From positions 1 to 61,292 of the forward strand of contig PXOU01000013.1 in the NCBI GenBank assembly GCA_003022365.1: 61,292 bases of DNA. Reading direction: 5' to 3'. This document shows positions 130-61,185 of the stretch, in pieces. The position numbers and the translations under genes were made by a program. Numbering within the stretch: the first letter of the stretch is position 1; each line of letters starts with the position of its first letter. Under the pieces are notes generated by a model, which saw nothing but the letters and a program-made list of their open reading frames with translations, did no database searches and was not told the DNA's origin. This stretch comes from Candidatus Saccharibacteria bacterium QS_5_54_17 (GTDB lineage Bacteria; Patescibacteriota; Saccharimonadia; QS-5-54-17).

Positions 130-475
130 ATGGGAGGGGAGGAGCAAGAAGTAAGAAGTAAGGAGTAAGAAGTAAGTGGGAAAATGCGAAGCCTCTTTGT
201 CACTGCGAAGACGTCATCCCGGACCCCGATCCGGGATCAGTTTCGGATCACCTCTGAAATAGATCCTGAAACAAGTTCAGGATGACAGAATAAAGTTTGT
301 TATTACGAGGCTACCCGCTTTGTCATTCCGGCCCCCGCTTGCACTGAGCAAGGTCGAAGTGATCCGGAATCCATCAAGCCGATATGAGTCTGAAAGCGAT
401 CCTGAAACAGATCCTGAAATAAATTCAGAGCCTGTCCTGAACTTGTTTCAGGAATGACATCTTCAGGATGACAAT
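130..475. repeat. Mosaic hairpin-repeat cluster 1
   Basis: Contains an AAG-rich tract (about 140-178), a GTCATCCCGGA/TCCGGGAT hairpin (213-238) and an ATCCTGAA/TTCAGGAT hairpin (263-283). GTCATTCCGGC-type modules follow. All recur in the other clusters. Confidence 0.85.
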
Positions 476-553
476 CCTTGGATTGGAGTCCGGGGTTCGG
501 CACTTAGCCCTACGGGCTATACTTGCTAAAATGAAGACATACACTGCTTACAC

Positions 554-643
554 GGAGGAGTGGCCGAGCGGCTGAAGGCGCACGCTTGGAAAGCGTGTGT
601 GCCCTTACGGGTACCGTGGGTTCGAATCCCACCTCCTCCGCCA
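554..643 (+). tRNA. tRNA-Ser (anticodon GGA)
   Basis: Acceptor stem GGAGGAG/CTCCTCC with encoded CCA. The anticodon stem CACGC/GCGTG carries loop TTGGAAA. A long variable arm marks a type II tRNA, and the T-loop is GGTTCGAATCC. Confidence 0.9.
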
Positions 644-689
644 ATTGATGCCCTATCGGATGATAGGGCGAATCCCACCTCCTCCGCCA
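623..689 (+). repeat. Direct duplication of the tRNA-Ser 3' end (att-like scar)
   Basis: The 21-mer CGAATCCCACCTCCTCCGCCA occurs at 623-643 and again at 669-689. The copies are separated by 25 nt holding a 7-bp hairpin (CCCTATC/GATAGGG). Confidence 0.8.
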
Positions 690-736
690 CATACTCGTAG
701 TAAAAGTACTATCTGTACGCTGCAATCGAACGCCAT

Positions 737-1282: not shown

Positions 1283-1360
1283 CCAGATGAATTTGGTGGC
1301 GACTCTATTTTTACAGCGTTTGTTATTATATGACTAATATAAACAGCAGAGGAAGAAATT

Positions 1361-2137: not shown

Positions 2138-2172
2138 GCTTATATTTTGATAAAATTTAACTACTCGTCATC

Positions 2173-3392: not shown

Positions 3393-3745
3393 CTTAATGT
3401 GACAAAACTTATTGAACTCTTTTTGTCATTCCGAAAACGTCATTCCTGAAATGAATTCAGGACAGGCTATGGACCCCGCCCGCACTGAGCAAAGTCGAAG
3501 TGATCCGGGATCAGTTTCGTATGTCATTCCGAATTTAGTTCGGAACCGGTCCTGAAAACAGATCCTGAAATAAATTCAGGATGACAATTATTTTTCGTCA
3601 CCCGCTTTGTCATTCCGGCCACCGAGCCCCGAATCCATTAACCCGATATGGTCTTGAAACAGATCCTGAATAAATTCAGAGCCTGTTGCTTCTCACTCCC
3701 TGTCTACCGTCTGCTGTCTGCGTACTGCTGCCGGGAGACTATACG
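3393..3745. repeat. Mosaic hairpin-repeat cluster 2
   Basis: Start module CTTAATGTGACAAAACTTATTGAAC lies 11 nt after the stop at 3382. Hairpin modules follow. End module GTTGCTTCTCACTCCCTGTCTACC...GCCGGGAGACTATAC occupies 3685-3745. Confidence 0.85.
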
Positions 3746-4624: not shown

Positions 4625-5207
4625 CCTCACTCTTTGTCACTGCGAACCTGCCTGCCGGCAGGCAGGCTTGGTTCGGAATCTGATTCTGCAATAGGGAAAC
4701 CATCCCGGATCACTTCGACCTTGTCCGCCCAAGGCGGACAGGCTCAGTGCGGGCGGAGTCCGGGATGAGGCGAACAGGAAGCAGGAAGCAAGAAGTAAGC
4801 GGGAGACGTGGACACGCAATTGCAAGCGCAATTGCAAGGAACGTCCTTGCAAGATTAAAAATCGCTACCAAAAGCGCTACTTGGCGCAAAATTGCAAGGA
4901 CGTTCCTTGCAAAAGGAGGGTTTCCTCTCTTTTTGTCATTCCTAATTTAGTTCGGAATCGTTTCTATAATAGATCCTGCAACCAAGCCTAAAATAGATCC
5001 TGAAATAAATTCAGGATGACAATCCTCTTTGTCATTCCGGCCCCCGAGCCGGAATCCATTAACCCGATATGATCCTGAAACGGATCCTGAAACAAGCCTG
5101 CCTGCCGGCAGGTAGGTTCAGGATGACAGGTTCAGAGCTTGTTGCTTCTCACTCCCTGTCTACCGCCTCCTGTCTACTGTCTGCGTGCTGCTGCCGGGAG
5201 ACTATAC
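4625..5207. repeat. Mosaic hairpin-repeat cluster 3
   Basis: Contains the CCTGCCTGCCGGCAGGCAGG palindrome, a reversed CCCGGAT module with an inner hairpin (4702-4766) and the TTGCAAGGA..TCCTTGCAA pair (4832-4912). Several hairpin types follow. The end module is at 5141-5207. Confidence 0.85.
4832..4912. repeat. 21-bp inverted repeats flanking a 39-bp spacer (copy C)
   Basis: TTGCAAGGAACGTCCTTGCAA (4832-4852) and its exact reverse complement (4892-4912) bracket the spacer. Confidence 0.85.
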
Positions 5208-5279
5208 GGGCGATACTCGCCAGCAGCGTTTCTATGTTGTCCTGTGGCTTATTGTATTACTTTTCCGAGCCGGGGCAGA

Positions 5280-6236: not shown

Positions 6237-7178
6237 ATGAAGGAGAAACCGCCGGATCAACAGCAAAATAATGCCCCTGGGCAGTCCGAGGAAGAGCCAG
6301 GGCGTACGCCTCAAGGGAACTTATCCCCGAACACGGCAGAGCAGCCCTCCCGGCCATATGTATCAAATCCGCTGCAGGTCTTCCTCGATAGCCTCAAGCG
6401 TTTGTTCACGGTGAACTTTGCTACCTTTCTTCGGTTTGCAGGGGTAATGTTATTAACGATCATCGTGGTGTCCGGCGCAATCTTATCGGCCGGGCTCCGT
6501 ACCGTGAGCAACACCGGTAACACCACCAACGGCAACATCAGCGACATCATCACCATTAATAATATTACCGGTAACCTCGGCGAGCTCGCTTGGGCAGCCA
6601 TAGGAGTTGTGGTTGTGTTGGCGTGGGGTGTCATACTCCAGGCGGCATGGAAGACATACGTTATTGAAACGGCACGTGAGAGCCGTATATCCCTGGGCAA
6701 AGCTTTCAGCAGCGGAGTCCGGAAAGCACCCGGTTTGCTTGGGGTGAATATCCTGTTCTTCGGCGGATTCTTGATCGGGCTGGGATTGTTGATTGTTCCC
6801 GGCCTCCTATTCCTGTATTGGTTTGTGTTTGCCCGGCATGTGTATATCGATACCGATGCCAGCATCCTACAGTCGTTCCGGGAGAGTAAAAAGCTGACAC
6901 AGGGCAAACTAAGGGAATTGGTCGGCTTAGCGAGCGCTACGTTGGTTTTGGGTTTGCCGGGCGCCCATTCAGGGTTCGGCACGTTCTACCAGATCCTTTT
7001 CATACCAGTAAATAGCCTTGCTTGGGCATATCGGTATACCAGCGCGGATATGCTCCAGCGAACCGAAACGCCCAAACCGGAGACCCACGTGGCCAATCTA
7101 GTTTTGCCATGCGTCATAGTAGCTTCGGTGGTACTCATTACCCTGGCATTGGCCGTTTTTACACCTTCCTGGTATTGA
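6237..7178 (+). CDS. Polytopic membrane protein, tandem paralog 1
   Basis: 313 aa. The Pro/Gln-rich N-terminus is followed by several TM segments. The core WKTYVIETARESRISL...IVPGLLFLYWF..YRYTSADMLQRT is shared with the next gene. Confidence 0.7.
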   Translation: MKEKPPDQQQNNAPGQSEEEPGRTPQGNLSPNTAEQPSRPYVSNPLQVFLDSLKRLFTVNFATFLRFAGVMLLTIIVVSGAILSAGLRTVSNTGNTTNGNISDIITINNITGNLGELAWAAIGVVVVLAWGVILQAAWKTYVIETARESRISLGKAFSSGVRKAPGLLGVNILFFGGFLIGLGLLIVPGLLFLYWFVFARHVYIDTDASILQSFRESKKLTQGKLRELVGLASATLVLGLPGAHSGFGTFYQILFIPVNSLAWAYRYTSADMLQRTETPKPETHVANLVLPCVIVASVVLITLALAVFTPSWY

Positions 7179-7206: not shown

Positions 7207-8226
7207 ATGGACTCTATGCCGCCGGACCAACAGCCAAGTAATGCGCCTGCCCGTTCCGGGGAGGAGCCAGGGCGTCCACCCGAGGGAAACTCGTCCCCGA
7301 ATACGGCAGAGCAGCCCTCCCGGCCATATGTATCCAATCCGCTGCAGGTGTTCCTCGATAGCCTCAGGCGTTTGTTTACAGTCAACTTTGCTACCTTTCT
7401 TGCGCTCGCGGGGTTGGCGTTCTTAACCATTGCCGTGTTAGCCATCGTGATCTTCGCGCCTGGTGGGTTCAGCCTCATTTTTGCGCCGATCGTAGTAATG
7501 GTTGTGTCGGCTGGTGGCGTATTCTTAACGATTGCCGCGGAAGCTTTCGCGGTCTTTGCGATCGCGAACGATACTTATGATACCACCGGTAACATCGGCG
7601 TGCTCATCCTGGGAGTGATAGGAGCAGCTGCTTTGTTGGTGTGGGGTGCCATACTCCAGGCGACGTGGAAGAAATACGTTATTGAAACGGTGCGTGAGAG
7701 CCGCATATCACTGAAAAAAACCTTGGGCAGCGGAATCAGGAAGGCACCCGGTTTGCTTTGTGTGCACGTCCTGTTCTTCGGCGGGGTGTTGGTCGGGCTG
7801 GGACTGTTCATTGTGCCAGGCCTTCTATTCCTGTATTGGTTTCTGTTTGCTCCATATGTGTATATGGATACTGATGCCGGTGTTATAGGGTCGTTCCGAA
7901 AAAGTAAAAAGCTAACCCAAGGCAAACTCGGGGAATTGCTGGGTTTGGCGGGCACTACGTTGATTTTGGGATTGCCGGCCGCTATTACAAAATTAAGCCC
8001 GTTCTACCTGATCGCGTTTAGCCCAGTTAGGAGCCTCGCTTTAGCCTATCGGTATACCAGCGCGGATATGCTCCAGCGGACCAATACGGGCAAACCGGCG
8101 AACCACGTGGCCAACGTAATAGCAGCTTTGGCGGCGCTCATTATCCTGGCATTGGCCGCCGGCTATATACATGATTGTCAACTCTCGGTTGAATGTTTCC
8201 TCCGGGGCGGGCACGTGCCCGGATAG
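7207..8226 (+). CDS. Polytopic membrane protein, tandem paralog 2
   Basis: 339 aa. The first ~65 codons are near-identical at DNA level to 6237-6430, and the conserved core is the same. The central loop region is diverged. Confidence 0.7.
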   Translation: MDSMPPDQQPSNAPARSGEEPGRPPEGNSSPNTAEQPSRPYVSNPLQVFLDSLRRLFTVNFATFLALAGLAFLTIAVLAIVIFAPGGFSLIFAPIVVMVVSAGGVFLTIAAEAFAVFAIANDTYDTTGNIGVLILGVIGAAALLVWGAILQATWKKYVIETVRESRISLKKTLGSGIRKAPGLLCVHVLFFGGVLVGLGLFIVPGLLFLYWFLFAPYVYMDTDAGVIGSFRKSKKLTQGKLGELLGLAGTTLILGLPAAITKLSPFYLIAFSPVRSLALAYRYTSADMLQRTNTGKPANHVANVIAALAALIILALAAGYIHDCQLSVECFLRGGHVPG

Positions 8227-12282: not shown

Positions 12283-12612
12283 CTTAATGTGATAGAAACG
12301 TATTAAACCCGCTTTGTCACTGCCAAGACGTTATCCCGGACCCCGCCCGCACTGAGCAAGGTCGAAGTGATCCGGGATCAGTTTCGGAATCGTTTGGATC
12401 CTGAAATAAATTCAGGATGACAATTTTGCAGGAAGACCTCCGACCCCCTCCGTCATTCCGAATTTAGTTCGGAATCGTTTCTGCAATAGATCCTGAAACA
12501 AGCCTGCCTGTCGGCAGACAGGTTCAGGATGACAGGTTCAGAGCTTGTTGCTTCTCACTCCCTGTATGCTGTCTACTGTCTGCTGACTGCGTGTTGCTCT
12601 GCCGGGAGACGA
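12283..12612. repeat. Mosaic hairpin-repeat cluster 4
   Basis: The start module at 12283 lies 17 nt after the stop at 12266. Hairpin modules include ATTCCGAA/TTCGGAAT at 12455-12475. The end module is at 12547-12612. Confidence 0.85.
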
Positions 12613-12717
12613 GACGCCGGAATGGTAGCGGACGTCGATGTCTTGTATACTCACCCAAGAAGCACCTGATGCTCTCGGGGCTGTTTTTTAGCCAATGGCA
12701 AGGTTTGAGGAGTTACG

Positions 12718-15279: not shown

Positions 15280-15308
15280 AGCTGTCACGCTCCTGATGGC
15301 GAACCATC

Positions 15309-15317
15309 TGCTATAAT
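15309..15317 (+). promoter_or_regulatory. Extended -10 element upstream of the dsbB-like gene
   Basis: TGCTATAAT matches TGnTATAAT, and the ATG at 15328 lies 10 nt downstream. This implies a very short or absent leader. Confidence 0.45.
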
Positions 15318-15327
15318 CCGGACTGTT

Positions 15328-15765: not shown

Positions 15766-15952
15766 GCGTTTTACTGTAGTCTCATAAACAACAGCGGGCA
15801 TTTCATGTTGCCCATATATCTACAGTTTCGGCAGTGACGTGTGTCACCTCCCCAAATTTTTGTGGTGTCTATTCAGGGGCAGCTGAAAGGGATAAAATGC
15901 GCCCCGTGGAGCCGTTCGCGTGGGTAATTGTGAGGGAGATTACCAAAAAAGC

Positions 15953-15980
15953 TTGACTTCTATGGTGTGGGGTGTAGGAT
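15953..15980 (+). promoter_or_regulatory. Candidate promoter for a long leader ahead of the LysM-Rpf gene
   Basis: TTGACT (15953-15958), a 16-nt spacer, then TAGGAT (15975-15980). No credible ORF lies between here and 16334. Confidence 0.4.
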
Positions 15981-16048
15981 AGCTTTTGTGTTTTTGGCGC
16001 CTCCGGGGCCAGAGACAGGTGAGGAAACGGTGCACTATATGGGAATAT

Positions 16049-16168
16049 GTCACTGCCGAAATGCATTCAGGACAGGCTTTGATTCCGATCCAATTGTCAT
16101 CCTGAAGACGTCATCCTGAACTTGTTTCAGGATCGGTTTCAGGATCTATTCCAGCAAATGTCATTCTC
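16049..16168. repeat. Mosaic hairpin-repeat cluster 5 (short)
   Basis: GTCACTGCCGAA..., TGTCATCCTGAAGACGTCATCCTGAACTTGTTTCAGGATCGGTTTCAGGATC. These modules are shared with the other clusters. Confidence 0.8.
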
Positions 16169-16201
16169 ATCGACGTTAAAAATTGACTTCGCCTCAAAAA
16201 C

Positions 16202-16327
16202 AGGCACCTGAAACGGCGGTTATAGCTTCGGGCTTCCCATGCCTCGATGTCATTTACCTAAAAAACATCGAGCCGTTTCAGGTGCCTCCCCAGAAGTATG
16301 TAAGGCGTGGAGGCATAAAAAAGGAGG
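16202..16327 (+). promoter_or_regulatory. Structured 5' leader with alternative pairings around an anti-SD-like CCTCC
   Basis: A perfect 16-bp stem pairs 16202-16217 with 16272-16287. The GTGCCTCC at 16283-16290 could instead pair with GGAGGCA (16309-16315), and its CCTCC part (16286-16290) with the SD AAGGAGG (16321-16327). Confidence 0.4.
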
Positions 16328-16333
16328 ATTACG

Positions 16334-16945: not shown

Positions 16946-16978
16946 CCGGGCGGCCGGGTTCCGGCCGCCCGGGGTTTT
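16946..16978 (+). terminator. Intrinsic terminator after the Rpf gene
   Basis: A 12-bp GC stem, CCGGGCGGCCGG/CCGGCCGCCCGG (16946-16972), is followed by GGTTTT. Confidence 0.7.
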
Positions 16979-17027
16979 CACGTTACTGCCGCGGAGGCGG
17001 GAATTTAACGCGGGAAAACATGAAAAC

Positions 17028-17206
17028 GATTCCGAAACAAGTTCGGAATGACGGAGAGGGGGTTCGCAGTGACAAAGAGGTTTTGCATTTTTCCACTTGC
17101 TTCTTACTTCCTGCTGCTTACTCCCTATTCTTTGTTCCCTGTCTACCGTCTACTGACTCCCACTTGCTGCTTACTTCTTACTTCTCACTCCTTGCTTCTT
17201 GTTCCC
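17028..17206. repeat. Mosaic hairpin-repeat cluster 6
   Basis: An ATTCCGAA/TTCGGAAT hairpin is followed by GTGACAAAGAGG and a long CT-rich tract. That tract includes the end-module core CCCTGTCTACCGTCT. Confidence 0.8.
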
Positions 17207-17277
17207 GCCGCCCGGCTGCACACCCGGCATGGATTGTGTCAAAATAGCCGGTGTCGCCTGACTAAGGAGAGATATTT

Positions 17278-18225
17278 GTGCCGGAACTGCCCGAAGTAGA
17301 GACCATCCGGAGCGGGTTAGCCGAGCTATTGCCCGGCCAACGGATCGCTGGAGTAGAGGTGCTGTTAAATAAGTCCCTGTCCGCTCCGGAATCCCATATC
17401 ACCACTCATATAGCGGGTGCTGGAGTCACCGATGTCAGGCGCCGGGGCAAAATCATGATAGTTGATCTCTCCAGCGGGTATAGCCTGCTGGTCCATTTGA
17501 AGATGACGGGGCAATTGGTGTTCGAGGCTGGCGGGCAACAACCAGCCAAGCCTGGAACCGGAACCAACGAGCCACACTCCTGCCCGAATCCAACATCCGA
17601 AACCGGGGACGGGAGACGTGTGGCCGGCGGTCATCCCACCCAAAGTATGGCGGGGGATTTACCGGATAAAACTACTCGGGTCATTTTTACCTTCCAGGAC
17701 GGCTCAAAACTGTTCTTCAACGACCAGCGCACCTTCGGCTGGATGAAACTGGTCGAGCGCTCGAAAGTCGAACGTGACAAATGTTTCATGGCCATGGGCG
17801 TGGAACCGCTGGGTTCCCAATTCGAGGTTTGTCACTTGAAATCTCGCCTCAAGCACCGGAAGGCGGCTATCAAGACGCTGTTGCTGGACCAGAGCCACGT
17901 GGCCGGTTTAGGTAATATTTACGCTGACGAGGCGTTGCACCTGGCCCAAGTACACCCCTCCCGGGAAGGACAGTCCCTCTCAGATGAAGAGATAGAACGG
18001 CTGCACGCGGCGATCATCAAAGTGTTAGGCGACAGCATTCAAGCCGGCGGCACCAGCTTCACCAGTTATGTGAACGCCAACGGCATTACCGGCGATTACT
18101 TACACAATGCCCGGGTCTACCGCCGCCAAGGTGAACCGTGTCGAGCGTGTGGGACAACAATAGACAAAATCAAGGTCGGCCAACGAGGCACGCACATCTG
18201 CCCCAATTGCCAGAAGTTAACATAA
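17278..18225 (+). CDS. mutM: Formamidopyrimidine-DNA glycosylase
   Basis: Starts MPELPEVETIR from a GTG after AAGGAGAG, and has a C-terminal zinc finger CRACGTTI...CPNCQ. A ~45-aa Gly/Pro/Thr insertion lies after HLKMTGQL. Confidence 0.85.
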   Translation: MPELPEVETIRSGLAELLPGQRIAGVEVLLNKSLSAPESHITTHIAGAGVTDVRRRGKIMIVDLSSGYSLLVHLKMTGQLVFEAGGQQPAKPGTGTNEPHSCPNPTSETGDGRRVAGGHPTQSMAGDLPDKTTRVIFTFQDGSKLFFNDQRTFGWMKLVERSKVERDKCFMAMGVEPLGSQFEVCHLKSRLKHRKAAIKTLLLDQSHVAGLGNIYADEALHLAQVHPSREGQSLSDEEIERLHAAIIKVLGDSIQAGGTSFTSYVNANGITGDYLHNARVYRRQGEPCRACGTTIDKIKVGQRGTHICPNCQKLT

Positions 18226-21382: not shown

Positions 21383-21850
21383 GTGTCATTCCTGAATTGT
21401 CATTCCTGAAACAAGTTCAGGACAGGCTCTGAATTTATTTCAGGATCTATTTTAGGACCAGATTCCGAACCAAGTTCGGAATGACAAAAAGAGAGGAACC
21501 CCTCCTTTTGCAAGGACCGTCCTTGCAATACATAGAATTGCTGCATAAAGCTTTTATTGAGCCAATCTTGCAAGGACGGTCCTTGCAATTGCGTGTCACT
21601 TCTCCTGCTTGCTTCTTGTTCCTGTCATCCTGAATTTATTTCAGGATCTATTTTAGGATCAGATTCCGAACTAAGTTCGCAGTGGCGGAGGAGGGCTCGG
21701 AATGGCAAAGAAGCTTCGCATTTTCCCACTTACTGCTTACTCCTTGCTGCTTGCTTCCCGTTCTTTACTCCCTGTCTGCTGTCTGCTGTCTACCGCCTAC
21801 TGTTACCTGCTTACTCCTTACTTCCTGCTGCTTGCTTCCCGTTCTTTGCT
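21383..21850. repeat. Mosaic hairpin-repeat cluster 7
   Basis: Contains hairpin modules and the TTGCAAGGAC..GTCCTTGCAA pair (21508-21588) in reversed context. Long CT-rich tracts follow. The right end overlaps the last codons of rpsT. Confidence 0.85.
21508..21588. repeat. 21-bp inverted repeats flanking a 39-bp spacer (copy B; spacer inverted relative to its flanks)
   Basis: The flanks are the reverse complement of those at 51621-51702, but the spacer TACATAGAATTGCT..CCAATC is in the same absolute orientation. Confidence 0.85.
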
Positions 21851-22168
21851 GCCGGCGGTTTGTTTCTGACTGCTACCGGAAGTTGACTTGGTTTTGGTGG
21901 TGGAAGCGAACGCTTGCTCCAGTTGCCGGTTCAGCCGGGATTTTTTCCGGGCGGCGGTGTTCTTTTTGATGACACCCTTTTTGACCGCTTTATCGATGGC
22001 TTTCTGGGCGGTTTTGGCGTGCTCCCGGACCTGCTGTTGCTGCCCGGTGGCAATCGCGTCATAACTGTCCTTGATGGCTTGGCGCATGGCGCGCTTGGCG
22101 TTTAAGTTTTCCCGGTACCGGGAGGTATTCTGTCGCATCCGTTTTTGGGCGGATTTGATATTCGGCAT
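21818..22168 (-). CDS. rpsT: 30S ribosomal protein S20
   Basis: MPNIKSAQKRMRQN start. At 116 aa it is about 25-30 aa longer than usual. The last codons and the stop lie in an AAG-rich repeat module. Confidence 0.9.
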   Translation of the reverse strand: MPNIKSAQKRMRQNTSRYRENLNAKRAMRQAIKDSYDAIATGQQQQVREHAKTAQKAIDKAVKKGVIKKNTAARKKSRLNRQLEQAFASTTKTKSTSGSSQKQTAGSKEREASSRK

Positions 22169-25257: not shown

Positions 25258-25455
25258 CTTAATATGAAAGAAACGTATTGCACACCTCCTTGTTGTTTAC
25301 TGCAGGGGAGGTATTTAGTAAGCCGAAAGACGAGGCGGATGGGTCTTAGGAAGTGCCGATAAAAGCGTGTTATCCCTACCTCTCCGCTTCGTCACTGCGA
25401 ATTTATTTCGGAATCCGGTCTTAAAACAGATCCTGAAATAAATTCAGGATGACAA
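25258..25455. repeat. Mosaic hairpin-repeat cluster 8
   Basis: A start-module variant at 25258 lies 6 nt after the truB stop. It is followed by the CACCTCC..GGGAGG hairpin and ATCCTGAA/TTCAGGAT. Confidence 0.8.
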
Positions 25456-25557
25456 TGTAACCCGGCCACTCCCGTCGCCGAAAAGCTCATGCTTGCCGCT
25501 TTTGCACGTGCATGCTATTGTGCCCATTCATTCAAATCTGCTAATATACAGCTGAGT

Positions 25558-25824: not shown

Positions 25825-25832
25825 GGTGGATC

Positions 25833-26083
25833 GTCACTCTGAATTTGTTGGGGAATCGGTTCTGATTTTGAAACAGATCCGGAAACCGATCCTGAAACAA
25901 GCCTGCCTGCCGGCAGACAGGTTCAGGATGACATCTTCAGGATGAGGCGAACAAGAAGCAGGAAGTAAGAAGTAAGTAGGGAAATGCAAATCCTCTCTGT
26001 CACTGCGAACCCCCTCCATCACTCCGAAGACCCGGACCCCGCCCGCACTGAGCAAAGTCGAAGTGATCCGGGATCCTTTTCGG
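25833..26083. repeat. Mosaic hairpin-repeat cluster 9
   Basis: Contains the CCTGCCTGCCGGCAGACAGG palindrome, an AAG-rich tract, and the GGACCCCGCCCGCACTGAGCAAAGTCGAAGTGATCCGGGAT module. Confidence 0.85.
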
Positions 26084-31440: not shown

Positions 31441-31732
31441 AAGTAAGCAGAAAGAAGTAAGAAGCAAGTGGGAGTCAGTAGTCAGGAGACGGTAGACGGT
31501 AGACAGGGAACAAAAATTAAGAAGCAAGCAGCAGGAAGTAAGAAGTAAGTTTCGGAATCGACTTTGATCCTGAAATAAATTCAGGATGACAATAGGGGAA
31601 GATCCTGAAACAAGCCTGCCTGTCGGCAGACAGGTTCAGGATGACATCATCTTCAGGAATGACATATTCAGCAATGATATTTCGCCTGGGTTTTTGTTGC
31701 CGGGTTTTGATAATAAGCCGGGAGACTATACA
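31441..31732. repeat. Mosaic hairpin-repeat cluster 10
   Basis: Begins at the rnj stop with AAG-rich tracts and a reversed end-module core (GGAGACGGTAGACGGTAGACAGGGAA). Hairpins follow. It ends ...GCCGGGAGACTATAC. Confidence 0.85.
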
Positions 31733-31773
31733 CCCGTCTGTACCCGCTGCAGTCTAGGCTATATAATGGCGGT

Positions 31774-38419: not shown

Positions 38420-38725
38420 AAAAATTGCTACCAAAAGCGCTACTTGGCGCAAAATTGCAAGGACGTTCCTTGCAAACGACTGTTCCTTGCAAACGACATG
38501 ATCCTGAAATAAATTCAGGATGACAATTCAGGGGTGACACTCCCCTCCGTCATTCCGAATTTAGTTCGGAATCGTTTCTGCAATAGATCCTGAAATAGAT
38601 CCTGAAACAAGTTCAGGATGACGTTTCTTCTTTGTCATTCCGAACTTGTTTCGGAATCGGCTCTGAATTTATTTCAGGAATGATATTCAGTCCGGTTTTT
38701 GTTGCCGGGTTTTGATAATGGACTA
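38420..38725. repeat. Mosaic hairpin-repeat cluster 11
   Basis: Contains a truncated spacer plus TTGCAAGGACGTTCCTTGCAA (38455-38475), ATCCTGAA/TTCAGGAT and ATTCCGAA/TTCGGAAT hairpins. It ends with a TTGTTGCCGGGTTTTGATAAT variant. Confidence 0.85.
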
Positions 38726-40043: not shown

Positions 40044-40406
40044 CTTAATGTGACAGGAACTTATTAAACCATCTTTGTCATTCCGAATTTAGTTCGGAAT
40101 CGTTTGGATCCTGAAACAAGTTCAGGATGACAAGAGAGGAGGATCCTGAAATAAATTCAGGATGACAGGAGCAAGAAGCAGGAAGCAAGAAGCAAGAAGT
40201 AAGTGGAAAAATGCAAAGCCTCTCCGTCATTCCGAACTTGTTTCGGAATCCAATTCTGAAACCGATCCTGAAACTGATCCCGGATCACTTCGACCTTGTC
40301 CGTCCAAGGCGGACAGGCTCAGTGCGGGTGGGGTCATAGCCTGTCCTGAATTCATTTCAGCAGTGACATCTTCAGGGCCTGTCCTGAACTTGTTTCAGCA
40401 GTGACA
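40044..40406. repeat. Mosaic hairpin-repeat cluster 12
   Basis: Start module at 40044, then hairpins and an AAG-rich tract. A reversed CCCGGAT module with an inner hairpin lies at about 40277-40335. Confidence 0.85.
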
Positions 40407-41374: not shown

Positions 41375-41950
41375 CTTAGTGTGACAGAAACTTATTGAAC
41401 CCTCTTTGTCACTGCGAACTTGTTTCGGAATCCGGTTCTGAAATAGATCCTGAAACAAGTTCAGGATGACGGGAATAAGAAGCAATAAGTAAGGAGTAAG
41501 AAGTAAGCGGGAGACGTGATACGCAATTGCAAGGACGGTCCTTGCAAAAGGAGGGTCCTCTCTTTTTGTCACTGGGAATTTAGTTCGGAATCTAATTCTG
41601 TAATACAGAAACGATCCCGGATGGGAGTCCGGGATGACAGGAAGAGAGTGTCATTCCGGCCGCCGAGCCGGAATCCATGAAGCCGATATGGTTTGAAACA
41701 GATCCTGAAATAAATTCAGGATGACAATAGGGGAAGATCCTGAAACGGATCCTGAAACAAGCCTGCCTGCCGGCAGGCAGGTTCAGGATGACATCTTCAG
41801 GATGACGGATTTAGGTGTGAGGATTCTGAACCAAGTTCAGAATGACAATAGGGGAAAATCCTGAAATAAATTCAGGAATGACAGGTTCAGGGCCTGTTGC
41901 TTCTCACTCCCTGTCTACTGTCTGCGTGCTGCTGCCGGGAGGCTATCCGG
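41375..41950. repeat. Mosaic hairpin-repeat cluster 13
   Basis: Start module at 41375, a solo TTGCAAGGACGGTCCTTGCAA (41527-41547), and many hairpins. The end module at 41896-41950 abuts the stop codon of the convergent gene. Confidence 0.85.
41527..41547. repeat. Solo 21-bp palindrome (collapsed form of the palindrome-spacer-palindrome module)
   Basis: It has the same flanks (ACGCAA ... AAGGAGGG) as copies at 51621-51702 and 4832-4912. Only one palindrome is present and there is no spacer. Confidence 0.8.
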
Positions 41951-51424: not shown

Positions 51425-52232
51425 GCTTAGTCTGACAGAAACTTGTTGAACACCTCCCCGACACTGCGACCCCCCTATCTGTCATTCCGGCCGCCGAGCC
51501 GGAATCCATGAATCCGATATGATCCTGAAACAGATCCTGAAACAAGTTCAGGATGACATCTTCAGGATGACAGGAATAAGAAGCAAGCAGTAAGAAGTAA
51601 GCGGGAAACGTGACACGCAATTGCAAGGACCGTCCTTGCAATACATAAAATTGCTCCCATAAAGCTTTTGTTTAACCAATCTTGCAAGGACGGTCCTTGC
51701 AAAAGGAGGGTTTCCTCTCTTTTTGTCATTCCGGCCTCCGAGCCGGAATCCATGAATTCGATATGATCCTGAAACAGATCCTGAAATAAATTCAGGATGA
51801 CAACAGAGGAAGATCCTGAAACAAGCCTGCCTGCCGGCAGGCAGGTTCAGGATGACAGGCATAAGAAGCAAGCAGTAAGAAGTAAGTGAAAAAATGCAAA
51901 ACCTCTTTGTCATTCTGCCCCCCTCCGTCATTCCGAACTTGGTTCGGAATCATTTGGAGCCTGGAATAGATCCTGAAACAAGTTCAGGATGACAGGAATA
52001 AGAAGCAAGCAGTAAGAAGTAAGGAGCAAGTGGAAAAATGCAAAGTCTTTCTGTCACTGCGACCCTCCTCCGTCATTCCGAATTTAGTTCGGAATCCAAT
52101 TCTAAATAGATCTTGAAACCGATCCTGAACCAAGCCCGCCTGCCGGCAGGCAGGTTCAGACGGACATCTTCAGAGCCTGTTGCTTGTCACTCCCTGTCTA
52201 CTGTCTGTGTGCTGCTGCCGGGAGCTTCTACG
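51425..52232. repeat. Mosaic hairpin-repeat cluster 14 (largest)
   Basis: The start module at 51425 lies 20 nt after the pilC stop. More than 15 hairpin modules, three AAG-rich tracts and the palindrome pair at 51621-51702 follow. The end module is at 52179-52232. Confidence 0.9.
51621..51702. repeat. 21-bp inverted repeats flanking a 40-bp spacer (copy A)
   Basis: TTGCAAGGACCGTCCTTGCAA (51621-51641) and TTGCAAGGACGGTCCTTGCAA (51682-51702) bracket TACATAAAATTGCTCCC...CCAATC. Confidence 0.9.
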
Positions 52233-56609: not shown

Positions 56610-56965
56610 CTTAGTCTGACAGAAACTTATTAAACACCTCCTTGCTGTTTACTACAGGGAGGTAGTCAGCAGACAGTAGACGGTATACAGGAAACAGGAA
56701 GTAAGCAGCAAGAAGTAAGAAGTAAGTGGAAATAAAAGTGTGTTATTCCTGCCTCCTCTCTTTGTCATTCCGAACTTGTTTCGGAATCCGGCTCTGAAAC
56801 AGATCCTGAAATAAATTCAGGATGACAAGAGAGGACGATCCTGAAACAGAATCCTGAAACTGATCCCGGATCGGGGTCCGGGATGACATCTTCAGGATGA
56901 CATTCAGAGCCTGTTGCTTCTCACTCCCTGTCTGCTGTCTGCGTGCTGCTGCGGGAGACTATACC
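56610..56965. repeat. Mosaic hairpin-repeat cluster 15
   Basis: The start module at 56610 lies 3 nt after the stop at 56607. It is followed by the CACCTCC..GGGAGG hairpin, AAG-rich tracts and further hairpins. The end module is at 56913-56965. Confidence 0.85.
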
Positions 56966-56971
56966 ATGATA

Positions 56972-57000
56972 TTGCACACATACCGCCCATGGTTTATAGT
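56972..57000 (+). promoter_or_regulatory. Candidate sigma-70 promoter of pilM-pilB-pilT (near-leaderless)
   Basis: TTGCAC (56972-56977), a 17-nt spacer, then TATAGT (56995-57000). The ATG at 57009 begins 8 nt after the -10 box. Confidence 0.55.
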
Positions 57001-57008
57001 GTGGTCAA

Positions 57009-58046
57009 ATGCCTATTTTAGACAAAAACACAGACTACTTCGGACTTGATATCGGGACGACCGGCGTCCGGCTGGTGCAGCTGAAGCCGGGCAGTTCCGC
57101 CCCCAGTCTGGTAACTTATGGCGCTAAACCAACCCCGGCCGATCTTGCCAGCAGCGACTCCGAGGTGGATAAGAACAAACTGGCCGATATCATCAAACAG
57201 CTCAAAAGCGAAGCCAAGATTTCCGCCGACCAGGTGGTGACCGCCTTACCGTCCCAGCATACCTTTACCACGGTCATTAATACGCCCAAGCTCAACAATA
57301 AGGAATTGGAAAAGTCCATCAACCTCCAGGCTGATCAGTACGTGCCCATGAAAGTCGAGGACGCCAAGTTGGATTGGCATGTCATCGATCCCGACAAGGG
57401 CGAGAATGAGATGTCAGTACTGCTGGTGGCTGCGCCGAAGAATGTGGTGAATAAATATTTGTCAGTGGTAGAGAAGGCCGATCTGAACCTGCTAGCACTG
57501 GAAATCAACGCCCTGGCGCTGGCCAGAAGCGTAGTTAGCACGGGGGATTTGCCGGTGGTGGTCGTTGACTTGGGAAGTACCAGTAGTGAGATTACCATCA
57601 TTTCCGGCCGGGTGCCGCACTTGGTACGCTCAGTGGACATCGGCGGCAATACGCTGGTCCGCTCGGTCGAGCAAAACCTGAATGTGGACACCGAACAAGC
57701 GCAACAGTTCCTGCAAAAGTTCGGCGTCACCCAAACCAAATTGGAAGGGCAGGTGCTGAAAGCTATACAGGGTTCGCTTGATAATCTCATGAACGAGATT
57801 TCCAAGTCGGTCAAATACTTTACGTCCCAGAATCAGGAGGCGCAGGTTGAAAAAGCGATCCTGACCGGCGGCCCGACCGCCTTGCCGGAAATGCCGTCCT
57901 ACGCTGCCAATTCGCTCAATCTGCCGGTAGAAATCGCCAATCCGTGGGTTAACGTCAGTTACCCGGCCACCCAACAGGAAACACTTATGAATCAATCTTT
58001 GCACTTTGCGGTGGCCGTTGGGTTGGCGCAGCGATCTTTCGTCTAG
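57009..58046 (+). CDS. pilM: Type IV pilus assembly ATPase-fold protein PilM
   Basis: Actin-like fold motifs are YFGLDIGTTGVRLVQL, VVVDLGSTSSEITI and ILTGGPTALPEM. Confidence 0.85.
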   Translation: MPILDKNTDYFGLDIGTTGVRLVQLKPGSSAPSLVTYGAKPTPADLASSDSEVDKNKLADIIKQLKSEAKISADQVVTALPSQHTFTTVINTPKLNNKELEKSINLQADQYVPMKVEDAKLDWHVIDPDKGENEMSVLLVAAPKNVVNKYLSVVEKADLNLLALEINALALARSVVSTGDLPVVVVDLGSTSSEITIISGRVPHLVRSVDIGGNTLVRSVEQNLNVDTEQAQQFLQKFGVTQTKLEGQVLKAIQGSLDNLMNEISKSVKYFTSQNQEAQVEKAILTGGPTALPEMPSYAANSLNLPVEIANPWVNVSYPATQQETLMNQSLHFAVAVGLAQRSFV

Positions 58047-58090: not shown

Positions 58091-59881
58091 GTGTTAGTCG
58101 GTGAATCCCAGAACACATTCGAACGGCTGCTGGTCGAAGAAGGATATCTCAGTGAGGAGCAGTTAAAAAGTCTGCGCCAGGAGTCGGCTGAGCAGAATAA
58201 GTCCATCATCAATCTGATCTCCGACCGGGGTTTGATTGACAAAGAAGATATCGTCAAAACGGTCGCCAAAGCCGAGAACGTACCCTATGCTGACCTGCAC
58301 GGTTTCAAAGCCGACGAAGAGACGCTGAACTTCATCCCCAAGGATCTGGCCAAGAATTACCAAGTGGTTCCCATCGGCATGATGAATGGCCAACTGGCGG
58401 TGGGTATGGTGGACCCCACCAACTTACAGGCGGTCGATTTCATCACCCGCCGGATCGGCCAGGCCATCACTCCTCACATGGTGTCTTCGGAAAGCGTGGA
58501 GGTGGTACTGGGCCAGTACGGGGCCGACGTTTCCGAGGAAGTATCCTCAGTGGTGGGCTCGGCTGAGCAGTTTGTCCAGTCCGAAGAACAACAGCAAAAG
58601 CAGCAACAACAGGAGGGGGGAGATGTCCAGAACCTGGTCCAGGACGCGCCCATCACCCGGGCGCTGAATACCATTCTGGATTACGCGGCCCGGCTGGAGG
58701 CATCCGACATTCACATCGAACCCAGACCGGAAAACGTCAAGATCCGTTTCCGTATCGACGGCATCCTCAAAGAGATTATGACCCTTCCCAAAGGGGTGGA
58801 AGCAGCACTGGTCTCCCGGGTCAAGATCCTCTCCAGTCTGAAGATTGATGAACACCGCCAACCACAGGACGGTGAATTTCAGATGCAACACGAGGGCCGT
58901 GACATCGACCTGCGAATCGCCATCGCGCCCATCGTCTGGGGCGAACAAGTCGTCATTCGGCTGCTTGATAAGGATTCCAGCCTGCTGGATATCGATTCAC
59001 TGGGCTACAAAGGCCGGGCCCGGCGGTTGATCCATGAAGGATTACAGAAACCCTACGGCATGACCCTTTCGACCGGCCCGACCGGTTCCGGCAAGTCGAC
59101 CACCTTGTATGCCGGCATTAACACCATCCACGACCCGGCCATCAATATCATTACCCTGGAGGATCCGGTGGAGTACAAAATGAGCGGCATCAACCAGATC
59201 CAGATCAACAGCCAAATCGGCCTGACGTTTGCCAGCGGCTTACGTTCGGTGTTGCGCCAGGATCCGGACGTGGTCATGGTGGGGGAGATCCGGGACGGGG
59301 AGACGGCCGATCTGGCGGTCCAGGCCGCGCTGACCGGCCACATCGTCCTCTCCACCTTGCACACCAACTCAGCGGCCGGCGTGCTGCCGCGGCTGATCGA
59401 TATGGGGATCGAACCGTTCCTGGTCAGCTCGGTCATCAATACGGTTATCGGCCAGCGGTTAGTCCGGCGCATTTGCGATAAATGCGCCAGGGAGCGGGAA
59501 TCCACGGAGGCGGAGAACCATTCCATCCAGGAGGTTCTGGGGAGCATTCTGCCCGAGTCGGGCGAAGCCAGCCAGGAGCTCAAAGAGGATATCGGCTACG
59601 AGGTATTGCCGGGTTTGGACCAAAACGCTTATACTTTATACCAAGGAAGCGGATGCAAGGACTGCAATGGGGAGGGGTACAAAGGACGCACGGGGATTTT
59701 CGAGGTCTTTAGCATTACTGATGAGATGGAGAAAATCCTGGTGAGTGGTATGACAAGCGGGCAAGTGCAGGAGCAAGCCCAGAAAGACGGCATGATCACT
59801 ATGCGGCAAGATGGATATCTAAAAGCGTTGAACGGCGTCACGACCTTGGACGAAGTCGCCCGTGTCGCCTCGGACGCCTAA
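58091..59881 (+). CDS. pilB: Type IV pilus extension ATPase PilB (GspE family)
   Basis: N-terminal T2SSE_N-like domain, Walker A GPTGSGKST, Asp box, Walker B VVMVGEIRD, His box TGHIVLSTLHTN, and a tetracysteine motif (CDKC...CKDC). Confidence 0.9.
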   Translation: MLVGESQNTFERLLVEEGYLSEEQLKSLRQESAEQNKSIINLISDRGLIDKEDIVKTVAKAENVPYADLHGFKADEETLNFIPKDLAKNYQVVPIGMMNGQLAVGMVDPTNLQAVDFITRRIGQAITPHMVSSESVEVVLGQYGADVSEEVSSVVGSAEQFVQSEEQQQKQQQQEGGDVQNLVQDAPITRALNTILDYAARLEASDIHIEPRPENVKIRFRIDGILKEIMTLPKGVEAALVSRVKILSSLKIDEHRQPQDGEFQMQHEGRDIDLRIAIAPIVWGEQVVIRLLDKDSSLLDIDSLGYKGRARRLIHEGLQKPYGMTLSTGPTGSGKSTTLYAGINTIHDPAINIITLEDPVEYKMSGINQIQINSQIGLTFASGLRSVLRQDPDVVMVGEIRDGETADLAVQAALTGHIVLSTLHTNSAAGVLPRLIDMGIEPFLVSSVINTVIGQRLVRRICDKCARERESTEAENHSIQEVLGSILPESGEASQELKEDIGYEVLPGLDQNAYTLYQGSGCKDCNGEGYKGRTGIFEVFSITDEMEKILVSGMTSGQVQEQAQKDGMITMRQDGYLKALNGVTTLDEVARVASDA

Positions 59882-59896
59882 TGGGAGGAGGGCGAT

Positions 59897-60976
59897 ATGG
59901 CTGAAGAAGAACCAACCGGTTTGCGGATCGAACATTTATTGCAAGAGGTAGTTGATAAAGACGCCTCCGACTTGCACTTGCAGGTGGGGTTACGGCCGGT
60001 GCTGCGGATTGATGGCGCCTTAACCCCGGCACATGACGCGCCGGTGTTGGATGAGAAAATGGTGGAGAATCTGATAAATGCCATCGTCGACGACGAACAA
60101 AAACAGATTCTGGAAAAAGATAAGGAGCTTGATTTTTCCTTCGCGTTCGGCGATCTGGGGCGTTTTCGCGTCAACGCCTACCACGAGCGGGGCAATCTGG
60201 CTGCCGCGCTCCGTTTAATCCCCAGTAACATACGCAGCATCGAAGATCTGGGACTCCCCAAAGTCATGAACAGTTTTGCCGAATATCCGCGGGGATTGGT
60301 CCTGGTTACCGGCCCGACCGGCTCCGGAAAATCGACCACGCTGGCGGCGATGATTGACAAAATCAACGAAGAACGGGCGACCCACATCATTACCATTGAA
60401 GACCCCATCGAGTACACCCACCAGAATAAACAGGCGGTGGTGTCCCAACGGGAAGTACACTATGACACCTACTCGTTTGCCACTTCCTTACGCTCGACAT
60501 TGCGCCAGGATCCGGACGTGGTACTGGTCGGGGAAATGCGGGATCTGGAAACCATCGCCTCGGCCATTACCATCGCCGAGACCGGACATTTGGTCTTCGC
60601 CACCCTGCACACCAATTCGGCTGCCCAAAGCGTGGATCGTATGGTCGATGTCTTCCCGCCGCACCAGCAGCAACAGATCCGGGTCCAGCTGGCGGCTATC
60701 ATCCAGGGAGTATGTTCGCAGCGGTTAGTACCGGCCATCGGCGGCGGCCGGCTGCCGGCGGTGGAAATCATGGCGGCCAACCCGGCCGTGCGGAACATCA
60801 TCCGCGAAGGTAAGACTCACCAATTGGATTCGGCCATTCAGACCGGCGGGGAACAAGGGATGCAGTCCATGGACAAAACCTTAGTCAACATGATCCGCAG
60901 CGGTAAGATTACCTACGAAGAAGCCAAAAACTACGCGGTCGACCTGGAAGAAGTTGACCGCTTGATGCGCAATTAA
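59897..60976 (+). CDS. pilT: Twitching motility (retraction) ATPase PilT
   Basis: Contains ASDLHLQVG, GPTGSGKSTT, DVVLVGEMRD, TGHLVFATLHTN and AIRNIIREGK. 359 aa. Confidence 0.9.
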   Translation: MAEEEPTGLRIEHLLQEVVDKDASDLHLQVGLRPVLRIDGALTPAHDAPVLDEKMVENLINAIVDDEQKQILEKDKELDFSFAFGDLGRFRVNAYHERGNLAAALRLIPSNIRSIEDLGLPKVMNSFAEYPRGLVLVTGPTGSGKSTTLAAMIDKINEERATHIITIEDPIEYTHQNKQAVVSQREVHYDTYSFATSLRSTLRQDPDVVLVGEMRDLETIASAITIAETGHLVFATLHTNSAAQSVDRMVDVFPPHQQQQIRVQLAAIIQGVCSQRLVPAIGGGRLPAVEIMAANPAVRNIIREGKTHQLDSAIQTGGEQGMQSMDKTLVNMIRSGKITYEEAKNYAVDLEEVDRLMRN

Positions 60977-61037
60977 CTTGACGGGCAATTGACCCAGGAA
61001 TGGAGGTGGGGCATCCGGTGTTGCTCGCCTGGGCGTA

Positions 61038-61185
61038 GCCAATTTAGTTCGGAACTGGCTCTGCAATAGATCCTGAAACGGATCCTGAAACAAGTTCAGG
61101 ATGACAAAGAGGATTGGCATTTTTCACTTACTCCTTACTTCCTGTTCCCTGTCTGCTGTCTGCGTACTGCTGCCGGGAGACTGTA
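61038..61185. repeat. Mosaic hairpin-repeat cluster 16
   Basis: An AATTTAGTTCGGAA module is followed by ATCCTGAA/TTCAGGAT, GACAAAGAGG and a CT-rich tract. An end-module core ...CTGCTGCCGGGAGACTGTAC closes the cluster. Confidence 0.8.

Follow-up and report, generated by a model that had tools for sequence, protein, structure and literature searches.

Intergenic hairpin arrays on a Saccharibacteria contig as probable CGTC-tagged REPs of the Ssn-related motif class

What fills the intergenic spacers of a streamlined Saccharibacteria genome when roughly 9% of the DNA in view consists of short repeated modules, and to which protein, if any, do these modules answer? The question is raised by a stretch of 61,292 nucleotides from Candidatus Saccharibacteria bacterium QS_5_54_17 (contig PXOU01000013.1; hereafter the window), in which sixteen spacers between otherwise unrelated genes are built from a small set of tagged hairpins and accompanying repeats. 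Judged by sequence and layout, these hairpins belong to an already described class, the CGTC-tagged repetitive extragenic palindromic (REP) elements, and are not a new kind of element. The explanation that we favor, with rather more confidence than doubt, is that they are CGTC REPs/Ssn-related motifs (SRMs), that is, non-autonomous miniatures of a unit in which two SRMs enclose ssn, a gene for a GIY-YIG nuclease acting on single-stranded DNA (ssDNA), and that they have been multiplied into arrays resembling the Neisseria intergenic mosaic elements (NIMEs).

To establish the extent of the repeats, 11-mers present at least three times were marked and merged, which yielded 16 intergenic arrays totaling 5,631 bp or 9.2% of the window. 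This recovers the ≈5.7 kb and ≈9% given for the same spacers by an initial annotation made from the sequence alone, every one of whose module sequences is present in the window. A structural hairpin search (GTCA tag, 8-bp stem, at most one mismatch, with long loops harboring a nested 20-nt palindrome allowed) identified 46 units. All of them are intergenic and confined to the 16 spacers; the other ≈88% of the window has none. The degenerate pattern GTCATYCYGRM-N5-KYCRGRAT (≤1 mismatch) has 32 matches compared with 0.00 expected from 100 dinucleotide shuffles; a repeat search returned at least 60 direct-repeat families, exemplified by the 25-mer GATYCYGAA-loop-TTCRGRATGAC in 26 copies; and the ssDNA fold of the largest array (array 14) lies at z = −9.2 relative to shuffles. 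Short repeats are prone to misassembly in metagenomes and only 61 kb are visible, so that an assembly artefact, which the initial annotation had considered, or a purely local duplication deserves mention; we consider both exceedingly improbable. An independent ENA contig (ERZ27230158 k119_43995, numbered L001 here; comparison loci carry the prefix L throughout) matches the window with 99.986% identity over 14.2 kb, four arrays included, and a second contig (L214) covers the right window end and reaches only ≈1 kb beyond it. A sister genome from other samples uses the same array vocabulary, and the 16 arrays are evenly distributed among unrelated genes over the 61 kb. The sixteen spacers filled with repeats are confirmed as real, at this scale and at the coordinates given below.

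Each hairpin unit consists of a (C/T)GTC tag, an 8-bp stem of the form A-T-Y-C-Y-G-R-M, a loop of 5 to 6 nt, the complementary arm, and a C-N-N tail. The tag is TGTC in 36 of the 46 units and CGTC in the other 10, with GTC invariant in the alignment; the stem types, all of 8 bp, are ATCCTGAA, ATTCCGAA, ATTCCGGC, ATCCCGGA, and ATTCTGAA. Among the 38 units with a perfect stem, the loop is 5 nt long in 31 and 6 nt in seven, and the 6-nt loops can also be read as a 9-bp stem with one mismatch around a 4-nt loop. The tail begins with C in 45 of 46 units, CCA being the commonest form (eight units), followed by CTA, CTG, and CGT. Four of the eight stem pairs differ on both sides between stem types with 100% pairing retained; since the copies were preselected for good pairing this percentage is partly circular, which does not apply to the compensatory differences between stem types. 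Stem pairs 1 (A-T), 2 (T-A), 4 (C-G), and 6 (G-C) are invariant in the aligned units, as are the GTC tag and the trailing C. The units are for the most part arranged head-to-head (HH) with their tags outward. There are 12 adjacent HH pairs, all of them heterodimers with ATTCCGAA or ATTCCGGC as the left partner and ATCCTGAA as the right one, in addition to eight tail-to-tail and seven head-to-tail pairs that arise because dimers are packed within arrays.

Two further peculiarities of the units can be seen in the window. A perfect 20-nt palindrome, CCTGCCTGCCGGCAGGCAGG, is nested exactly within the loop of seven units; its copies (4646-4665, 5098-5117, 12503-12522, 25902-25921, 31615-31634, 41762-41781, 51826-51845, and 52138-52157), several of them 1 to 2 bases off consensus, occupy the same loop position in otherwise normal REPs of two stem types, as if another, very small element had REP loops as its target. 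Some units also show a half-site stutter, either as a tandem copy of the left arm ahead of the REP (GATCCTGAAACR GATCCTGAAAC...) or as the right arm plus tag behind it (TTCAGGATGACANN TTCAGGATGAC), for example at 5071-5093, 41736-41758, 51521-51544, 51546-51571, and 25921-25945. The same stutter is found beside such hairpins in unrelated phyla (L050, L071, L090, L111, and L112) and may be a footprint of unit copying or repair.

The layout of the unit is that of a published family. As described by Di Nocera, De Gregorio & Rocco (2013, BMC Genomics 14:522; PMC3733652), CGTC-tagged REPs carry the unpaired tag CGTC (or TGTC/CCTC) at one end, an 8- to 9-bp stem beginning with AT, a 4- to 5-nt loop, and an unpaired 3-nt tail, mostly CCA; they occur mainly as HH dimers, often heterodimers, are intergenic, and lack a dedicated transposase. 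This superfamily includes dRS3 of Neisseria and RPE-4/6 of Rickettsia and comprises families CGTC-1 to -4, and we assign the window hairpins to CGTC-2 by that text description rather than by a comparison of consensus sequences. The initial annotation had recognized no named family in these modules, and on this point it is superseded, the hairpins matching a described repeat family; its analogy with REPs and bacterial interspersed mosaic elements (BIMEs), that is, with mosaics of short palindromic units, is supported. The unit is also widespread. In a scan of one genome per species, the exact 25-mer GATCCTGAAAYAARTTCAGGATGAC was found in at least 119 stretches of other genomes, and the matches listed include groups of the candidate phyla radiation (CPR), Bacteroidota, Sphingomonadales (Alphaproteobacteria), Gammaproteobacteria, Treponema, Gastranaerophilales (Melainabacteria), Dependentiae, Ignavibacteria, and others, the CPR entries comprising three loci from two other Saccharibacteria metagenome-assembled genomes. 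Among these listed matches, the 25-mer hairpin usually forms the right-hand member of an HH dimer whose other unit is, for instance, GTCATGCTGAACTTGTTTCAGCATC.

Which gene travels with these hairpins? A Y1 transposase akin to the REP-associated tyrosine transposases (RAYTs) was the partner expected in the initial annotation, which had seen no transposase, RAYT, or integrase in the window; domain scans of the substantial open reading frames (ORFs) of the window likewise gave none of these. We clustered the ORFs across the 119 listed REP loci. No ORF family occurs in more than four of these loci and no Y1 transposase recurs among them, and there is therefore no closely linked transposase. These results bear on the possibility that the hairpins are classical REPINs mobilized by a RAYT (an IS200/IS605-type Y1 transposase) encoded elsewhere in the genome, of which the window is only a part. 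Inverted REP doublets, intergenic location, and high copy number are all shared with REPINs; the tag, however, is CGTC/TGTC and not GTAG, Di Nocera et al. (PMC3733652) report that CGTC REPs flank no tyrosine transposase gene, and the gene that the hairpins do bracket in other genomes encodes a GIY-YIG protein. A RAYT-driven origin is accordingly very improbable.

This GIY-YIG gene, the sole small ORF to recur beside the hairpins, emerged as one of the four-locus families, a protein of ≈95 aa most members of which match the Pfam GIY-YIG domain only. A hidden Markov model built from the family retrieved five strong copies and, as a sixth and weaker match, a diverged ORF in a more distant Saccharibacteria contig (L124, see below). 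In L108, L098, and L090, the GIY-YIG ORF is found between two tagged hairpins in HH orientation, positioned 5 to 90 nt from the ORF ends. This link between gene and hairpin was rederived independently here and is already published: Chenal et al. (2025, Nat Commun 16:2388; PMC11893778) reported that the Neisseria dRS3 is part of an oriented motif, NTS, and that, among homologues of SsnA, a GIY-YIG protein of 94 aa (cd10448), 71% lie close to Ssn-related motifs and 42% have them on both sides. Binding by SsnA requires the hairpin to be ssDNA and is confined to one of its strands; cleavage takes place a few nucleotides upstream and spares double-stranded DNA, RNA, and the opposite strand, and Ssn does not bind RNA (PMC11893778). 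The GTC ahead of the palindrome governs cutting and the C behind it governs binding (PMC11893778), which matches the invariant GTC and C of the window hairpins. Deletion of ssnA in Neisseria raises transformation with NTS-bearing DNA approximately five-fold, the NTS-ssnA-NTS arrangement looks like an insertion sequence, and genomes with >300 motifs are enriched in symbionts (PMC11893778).

The association holds when loci are selected without regard to hairpins. Four GIY-YIG homologues chosen only for their presence on many contigs have hairpins adjacent in four of four cases. In L157, the order is GTCATCCTGAACTTGTTTCAGGATC, 31 nt, the GIY-YIG ORF, 1 nt, and GATCCTGAAACAAGTTCAGGATGAC; in L147, from a CPR Daviesbacteria genome, an HH dimer of ATCCTGAA and ATTCCGAA begins 6 nt past the ssn stop codon and is made of the same two stem types as the window pairs in reversed left-right order (ATCCTGAA on the left). 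In total, ATCCTGAA, ATTCCGAA, and ATGCTGAA hairpins bracket or adjoin ORFs of the Ssn family in L098, L108, L090, L157, L136, L146, and L147, where membership in that family (cd10448) is deduced from a Pfam architecture of GIY-YIG alone and from relatives with exact NTS at their flanks. Among 41 IMG/VR loci collected by protein similarity alone, 22 carry a tagged hairpin no more than 150 nt from the gene and 16 are bracketed by hairpins, typically at offsets of −40 to −47 and +5 to +8; the hairpins number 4.3 per kb close to the GIY-YIG gene versus 0.26 per kb further off, and stem type tracks the clade of the GIY-YIG protein. The NTS consensus CGTCATTCCCGCGMAVGCGGGAATCYRG (≤1 mismatch) has 13 matches flanking GIY-YIG genes in L182-L202, some of them exact. 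NCBIfam holds no specific model for these small GIY-YIG proteins, and the PDB contains only their distant UPF0213 relatives.

Several observations weigh against an Ssn-based explanation of the window arrays. The NTS consensus (≤1 mismatch) has no match in the window, and the SRM search motif HGTCWYN(0-2)YYVSBRHN(0-5)WNVSBRGN(0-2)RNCYNB matches none of the 46 units because their inner stems are A/T-rich (CCTGAA/TCCGAA); its single match in the window, compared with a shuffle mean of 0.42, is intragenic and is not a repeat unit. SRM-class membership therefore rests on the association in other genomes. An hmmsearch detected no ssn/GIY-YIG gene in the 61-kb window, L001, L121-L123, L125-L127, or L214 (≈60 kb of close relatives), and each exact Ssn protein that was looked up occupies a single conserved locus, unlike an actively transposing gene. 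Clusters of CGTC REPs outside Neisseria and Wolbachia are called rare by Di Nocera et al. (PMC3733652). Finally, the non-REP modules that make up roughly half of the array DNA are not accounted for by Ssn, and mobilization of repeats by Ssn has no published demonstration.

The diverged GIY-YIG ORF of L124 (79 aa; 17790-18110) lies between a helix-turn-helix gene and rpsF, is weakly related to the Ssn profile (E = 1.6e-10), and is missing from the window and from L121, L123, L125, and L126. A 17-nt inverted repeat, CCCCGCACCTGAAAACG / CGTTTTCAAGTGCGGGG, encloses this ORF and is different in kind from the window hairpins, and the gene looks as if it had landed in the loop of a pre-existing hairpin.

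How old are the arrays? Gene order is conserved in relatives of the window, which makes their spacers comparable one to one. L125 and L126 share 88 to 95% nucleotide identity with the window over aligned blocks, mostly 91 to 93%. The rnj-ftsK spacer measures 333 bp in the window versus 63 bp in L125/L126, and the extra DNA is one complete block that extends from the heptamer tract through GGGAGACTATAC. From the truB-rpsO spacer of L125 a block of ≈200 bp is missing that opens with the T module (see below) and closes with a REP dimer. The holA-rpsT spacer is 448 bp long in the window and 69 bp in L121, and the array of L125 at this site differs in modules and order. REPs are nearly absent from L121/L122 and L127 (about 72-81% identity), L123, and L124. 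Arrays turn over fast between close relatives, in keeping with the very active non-autonomous element that the initial annotation had named as an alternative to a functional role, and, taken together with the conserved rpsO-pnp spacer described below, this comparison of spacers indicates that the hairpin family is old in the class while its expansion is recent and clade-specific.

Fast turnover might also be expected if the arrays were, as has been proposed for the NIMEs of Neisseria, simply substrates for recombination, gaining and losing modules through slippage and through homologous or illegitimate exchange and thereby diversifying adjacent surface and pilus genes without a dedicated nuclease. 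The syntenic arrays of the window and L125 differ in module number and order, as NIMEs do (PMC1797815), many arrays flank type IV pilus and cell-surface genes, and the tandem half-site duplications (GATCCTGAAACR twice, TTCAGGATGACANN twice) suggest slippage. Such a process does not explain arrays that have arisen de novo at spacers free of repeats in relatives (rnj-ftsK and truB-rpsO), nor the conservation of tag and stem across phyla or the tight link to ssn; moreover, arrays also flank polA, pnp, rnj, and ftsK. As a self-sufficient account we think this unlikely, and it is compatible with an Ssn-based origin rather than exclusive of it.

One spacer departs from this pattern of turnover. A REP dimer directly past the rpsO stop codon and upstream of pnp is present in the window (25831-25933), L125 (4495-4560), L121 (9805-9880, degenerate), and L124 (9810-9880, where it reads GTCATTCTGGATCTGTTTCAGC...CCCCTGAAACAGTTTTAGGATGAC); unlike all other arrays, it is kept across Saccharibacteria down to 69% identity of polynucleotide phosphorylase (PNPase). 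In E. coli, an RNase III-processed hairpin lies between rpsO and pnp. The window dimer may have been co-opted as an rpsO terminator or a pnp leader hairpin, and it speaks for an RNA-level role, in which hairpins in the transcript would stop 3' exonucleases, act as terminators or insulators of transcription, or serve RNase processing, as proposed for E. coli REP/BIME. A role of this kind would also fit the position of most arrays, which begin 3 to 20 nt past a stop codon with a T module that is always on the + strand, the direction of most genes, and the strong structure of the arrays (z = −9.2). Orthologous spacers in genomes about 93% identical, however, lack arrays or carry different ones, and the arrays are therefore dispensable for expressing the housekeeping genes beside them. 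Three arrays lie in inverted orientation among + strand genes. T-runs are lacking at the hairpins, terminator-like matches are mainly antisense and located at the nested palindrome, and there are no convincing sense-strand terminators at REPs. An Rfam comparison, as proposed in the initial annotation, returned only the tRNA for the whole window at the gathering threshold, and for the largest array at E ≤ 1 only weak microRNA-precursor matches of the sort given by generic long hairpins. The unpaired GTC tag and trailing C, invariant across phyla, point instead to a protein-DNA site, and Ssn does not bind RNA. The 3'-end protection and termination put forward in the initial annotation are thus conceivable but poorly supported, given the lack of T-runs and of RNA binding by Ssn; an RNA-level role may apply to the conserved rpsO-pnp dimer, is disfavored for the hairpin family as a whole, and is in our estimate an improbable general explanation.

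We return to the explanation in which the hairpins are gene-less derivatives of an SRM-ssn-SRM unit. By the mechanism published for Neisseria, the hairpin strand that carries the tag would, once single-stranded, be bound by Ssn, whose nick would fall a few nucleotides 5' of the tag, and incoming ssDNA that bears the motif would recombine less well. The HH dimers would represent the SRM-ssn-SRM geometry minus the gene and could spread through ssDNA nicking plus repair or template switching; the spread units, together with lineage-specific spacer modules, would then be rearranged by recombination and slippage. Tandem half-site duplications are visible. A cognate Ssn is presumably encoded elsewhere in this genome, and Ssn, or repair after Ssn nicks, probably drives the spread of the hairpins. 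The arrays may also influence the recombination of pilus-imported DNA. Saccharibacteria are naturally transformable, and genetic work on cultivated strains reportedly made use of this (Wang et al., Cell 2023). An import-limiting role is plausible because of this transformability and because the window encodes a full type IV pilus set. Candidate ssDNA substrates of the cognate Ssn in the window are GTCATCCTGAAYTTRTTTCAGGATC and GTCATTCCGAAYTTRKTTCGGAATC, and GTCATCCTGAA/GTCATTCCGAA are the hairpins predicted to bracket any Ssn ORF of this lineage.

A bolder proposal, which we hold as tentative and on balance doubtful, is that an A/T-stem branch of the Ssn-hairpin system, invisible to the SRM motif, exists in Saccharibacteria, many other CPR bacteria, Melainabacteria, and Dependentiae and has expanded to roughly 9% of the DNA here, where the arrays would mark self DNA for a nuclease that chooses which pilus-imported DNA recombines; alternatively, Ssn would have been lost and the arrays would be orphans with another role. 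Self-DNA marking, if true, would be significant in organisms that depend on host DNA uptake. An Ssn nuclease-hairpin system in CPR bacteria has no report in the literature searched, and the present work would extend a recently characterized nuclease and hairpin system to the candidate phyla radiation. The published SRM motif misses a whole A/T-rich branch, and the system is therefore probably far more widespread than published; genomes with A/T-rich stems would have escaped the 2025 survey of Chenal et al. The interest of the locus lies in its streamlined epibiont host, the density and NIME-like organization of the repeats, and this blind spot of the published motif. A streamlined genome class tolerates repeat arrays amounting to ≈9% that differ between genomes about 93% identical; such arrays can serve as strain markers and perhaps as a means to study recombination in epibionts, and the hairpins are candidates for new pairings of Ssn and hairpin specificity in the ssDNA tools that Chenal et al. 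proposed.

The arrays contain further modules besides REPs. The left end is formed by the T module, CTTARTNTGAYAGAAACKTATTRAAC, in six to seven copies, all on the + strand and most starting 3 to 20 nt past a stop codon. Heptamer tracts (AAGYAAG)n, with a period of 7 by TRF, are followed by GTGGAAAAATGCAAAGCCTCT, and H palindromes (TTGCAAGGACSGTCCTTGCAA; eight copies including variants) occur in pairs. The right end is the G module, which is CT-rich and terminates in CTGCTGCCGGGAGACTATAC. Reading the T and G ends as terminal inverted repeats of one composite transposon was considered and rejected, as inspection by eye gave only a weak TAGTCT...CAG resemblance. A metagenome scan with the H palindrome TTGCAAGGACSGTCCTTGCAA retrieved seven unrelated low-GC contigs (L129-L135) without REPs. 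In these contigs the palindrome is single, in some directly next to a −10-like box or within a longer palindrome, and it may be an operator-like site common to CPR bacteria rather than an array-specific module.

Along the window, array 1 (130-475, no strand assigned) lies upstream of the tRNA at 554-640 and contains an AAGAAGT heptamer tract (146-176), an HH pair of REPs at 213-237 (+) and 263-286 (−), and degenerate REPs. Array 2 (3395-3745, +) opens with a T-like left end just past the stop of a PIG-L gene and continues with an HH pair (3523-3585) and a right-end module ending in CTGCTGCCGGGAGACTATAC (3725-3744). Array 3 (4630-5227, +) has a REP with a nested palindrome, a heptamer tract, an H pair (4832 and 4892), two HH pairs (4935-5020 and 5031-5127), and a G end (5188-5207). 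Array 4 (12283-12644, +), upstream of polA, runs from a T module (12283-12308) through REPs at 12398-12421 (−), 12452-12475 (+), and 12490-12533 (−, nested palindrome) to a CT-rich right end.

Arrays 5, 6, and 7 are the inverted ones. Array 5 (15999-16157, −) is a small REP block (REP 16110-16133, +) within a long dsbB-lysM leader and is missing from the orthologous leader of L121; array 6 (16959-17217, −) has a REP at 17029-17052 (−) followed by the reverse complement of the AAG-tract module; and array 7 (21384-21858, −), between holA and rpsT, harbors REPs at 21462-21485 (−) and 21624-21647 (+), an H palindrome pair (21508/21568), and CTT heptamer tracts. Array 8 (25258-25456, +), between truB and rpsO, comprises a T module (25258-25283) plus hairpin, a degenerate REP, and a REP at 25430-25453 (−). 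Array 9 (25831-26075, +) is the rpsO-pnp array, in which the REP dimer, whose right unit (25889-25932) carries a nested palindrome, is followed by a heptamer tract. Array 10 (31441-31731, +), between rnj and ftsK, consists of heptamer tracts and then REPs at 31567-31590 and 31602-31645 (−).

Array 11 (38440-38712, +) combines H palindromes with four REPs of alternating orientation (38501, 38549, 38599, and 38634). Array 12 (40044-40398, +) starts with a T module (40044-40069), an HH pair (40077-40131), and a REP (40143-40166), and continues with a heptamer tract (40166-40203) and another REP (40226-40249). Array 13 (41375-41948, +) adjoins the gene of a CWB2 surface protein and has a T module (41375-41400), eight REPs, an H palindrome at 41527, and a G end (41929-41948). 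The largest, array 14 (51426-52231, +), lies between pilC and a pilin-like gene; its T module (51426-51451) is accompanied by ten REPs, including three ATTCCGGC/ATTCCGAA + ATCCTGAA HH heterodimers, an H pair (51621/51682), nested palindromes, and a G end (52212-52231). Array 15 (56610-56964, +), upstream of pilM, has a T module (56610-56635) plus hairpin, a heptamer tract, an HH pair (56764-56826), a REP (56863-56887), and a G-like end. Array 16 (61041-61186, +), past pilT, contains a degenerate REP, a REP at 61082-61105 (−), a CT-rich tract, and a G end (61167-61186).

The window has a GC content of ≈55% and encodes housekeeping functions (a tRNA, dnaG, two sigma-70 genes, polA, truB, rpsO, pnp, rnj, ftsK, rpsF-ssb-rpsR, efp, and ychF) and a surface and pilus block (the CWB2 protein, a 1495-aa protein, pilN/O, pilC, pilins, pilM, and pilB/T). 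The nearest named matches of its PNPase come from Candidatus Saccharimonadales (69-70% identity), and its gene order is common to such contigs, which marks the host as a Saccharibacteria (CPR) bacterium, one known from metagenomes only; blastn against a plasmid collection gave no match to the window. By eye, the window ends (1-105 and 61190-61292) are near-identical inverted copies, each with a ribosome-binding site and a gene start MKYG(T/I)SMQTYGTV..., one per strand. The right-end gene runs on for >260 aa in L214 without a Pfam match, and the 61-kb segment, lying between inverted paralogues, could be able to invert. Two adjacent genes for UPF0259-family membrane proteins (6237-7178 and 7207-8226) form a tandem pair of paralogues that share 78-80% nucleotide identity along ≈850 bp (repeat families D15 and D17). 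Between pnp and udg (28241-28760), the ORF at 28304-28663 encodes a 119-aa "23S rRNA-intervening sequence protein" (PF05635). Tandemly repeated heptamers in inverted orientation enclose this ORF, (CAATTCA)n at 28246-28277 and (AAATTGT)n at 28682-28708. Since L125 lacks the ORF and has another tandem repeat, of an 11-mer, at this site, the ORF looks like a separate small insertion. The spacer of ≈550 nt upstream of the LysM/transglycosylase gene (window 15766-16333; L121 1534-2066) retains conserved blocks between genomes that are ≈74% identical, is interrupted in the window by the small REP insertion at 15999-16157, and has no Rfam match at E ≤ 1; it is a candidate structured leader or riboswitch. 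TATAAT-like boxes lie just 7 to 15 nt ahead of the start codons of dsbB, ftsK, and pilM (15300-15327, 31745-31776, and 56985-57011; L121 1070-1095) and are conserved in relatives, a pattern that suggests that the lineage may use leaderless or very short-leader mRNAs.

How, then, does this system compare with those already known? With the NTS/SRM motifs of Chenal et al. (2025), the window units share an oriented hairpin with conserved GTC 5' and C 3' of the palindrome and hairpin types that bracket Ssn-family genes in other genomes, and their high copy number fits the observation on symbionts; that paper (PMC11893778) does not mention CPR bacteria, to which the window host belongs. The CGTC-tagged REPs of Di Nocera et al. 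are alike in tag, stem, tail, HH heterodimers, intergenic site, lack of an adjacent transposase, and a position mostly downstream of genes. They are there described from Proteobacteria, Chlorobi, Bacteroidetes, Spirochaetes, and Thermotogae and not from CPR bacteria, are rarely clustered whereas the window units are nearly all in arrays, and have loops of 4 to 5 nt whereas some in the window have 6 nt or a nested 20-nt palindrome. Enterobacterial REP/BIMEs and Pseudomonas REPINs resemble the window in being built of palindromic units that form inverted doublets and mosaic clusters, and in having one associated gene with the repeats at its flanks, without sequence similarity; a GTAG tag and an HUH Y1 transposase there contrast with a C/TGTC tag and a link to a GIY-YIG nuclease here. 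The NIMEs, which according to Bentley et al. (PMC1797815) had not been seen outside Neisseria and vary at syntenic sites between Neisseria strains, have spacer modules unrelated to those of the window, where the dRS3 unit ATTCCC-N8-GGGAAT has no match and arrays also flank core housekeeping genes; their host is a 2.2-Mb proteobacterium with established natural competence, as opposed to an epibiont of the ≈1-Mb genome class for which competence is only inferred. In organization, the arrays nonetheless resemble NIMEs: both consist of many short oriented hairpins separated by families of 20- to 200-bp spacer repeats, vary at syntenic sites, and are enriched by pilus and surface genes in a piliated host, and by this analogy the T, AAG-tract, H, and G modules would play the part of the NIME RS elements.

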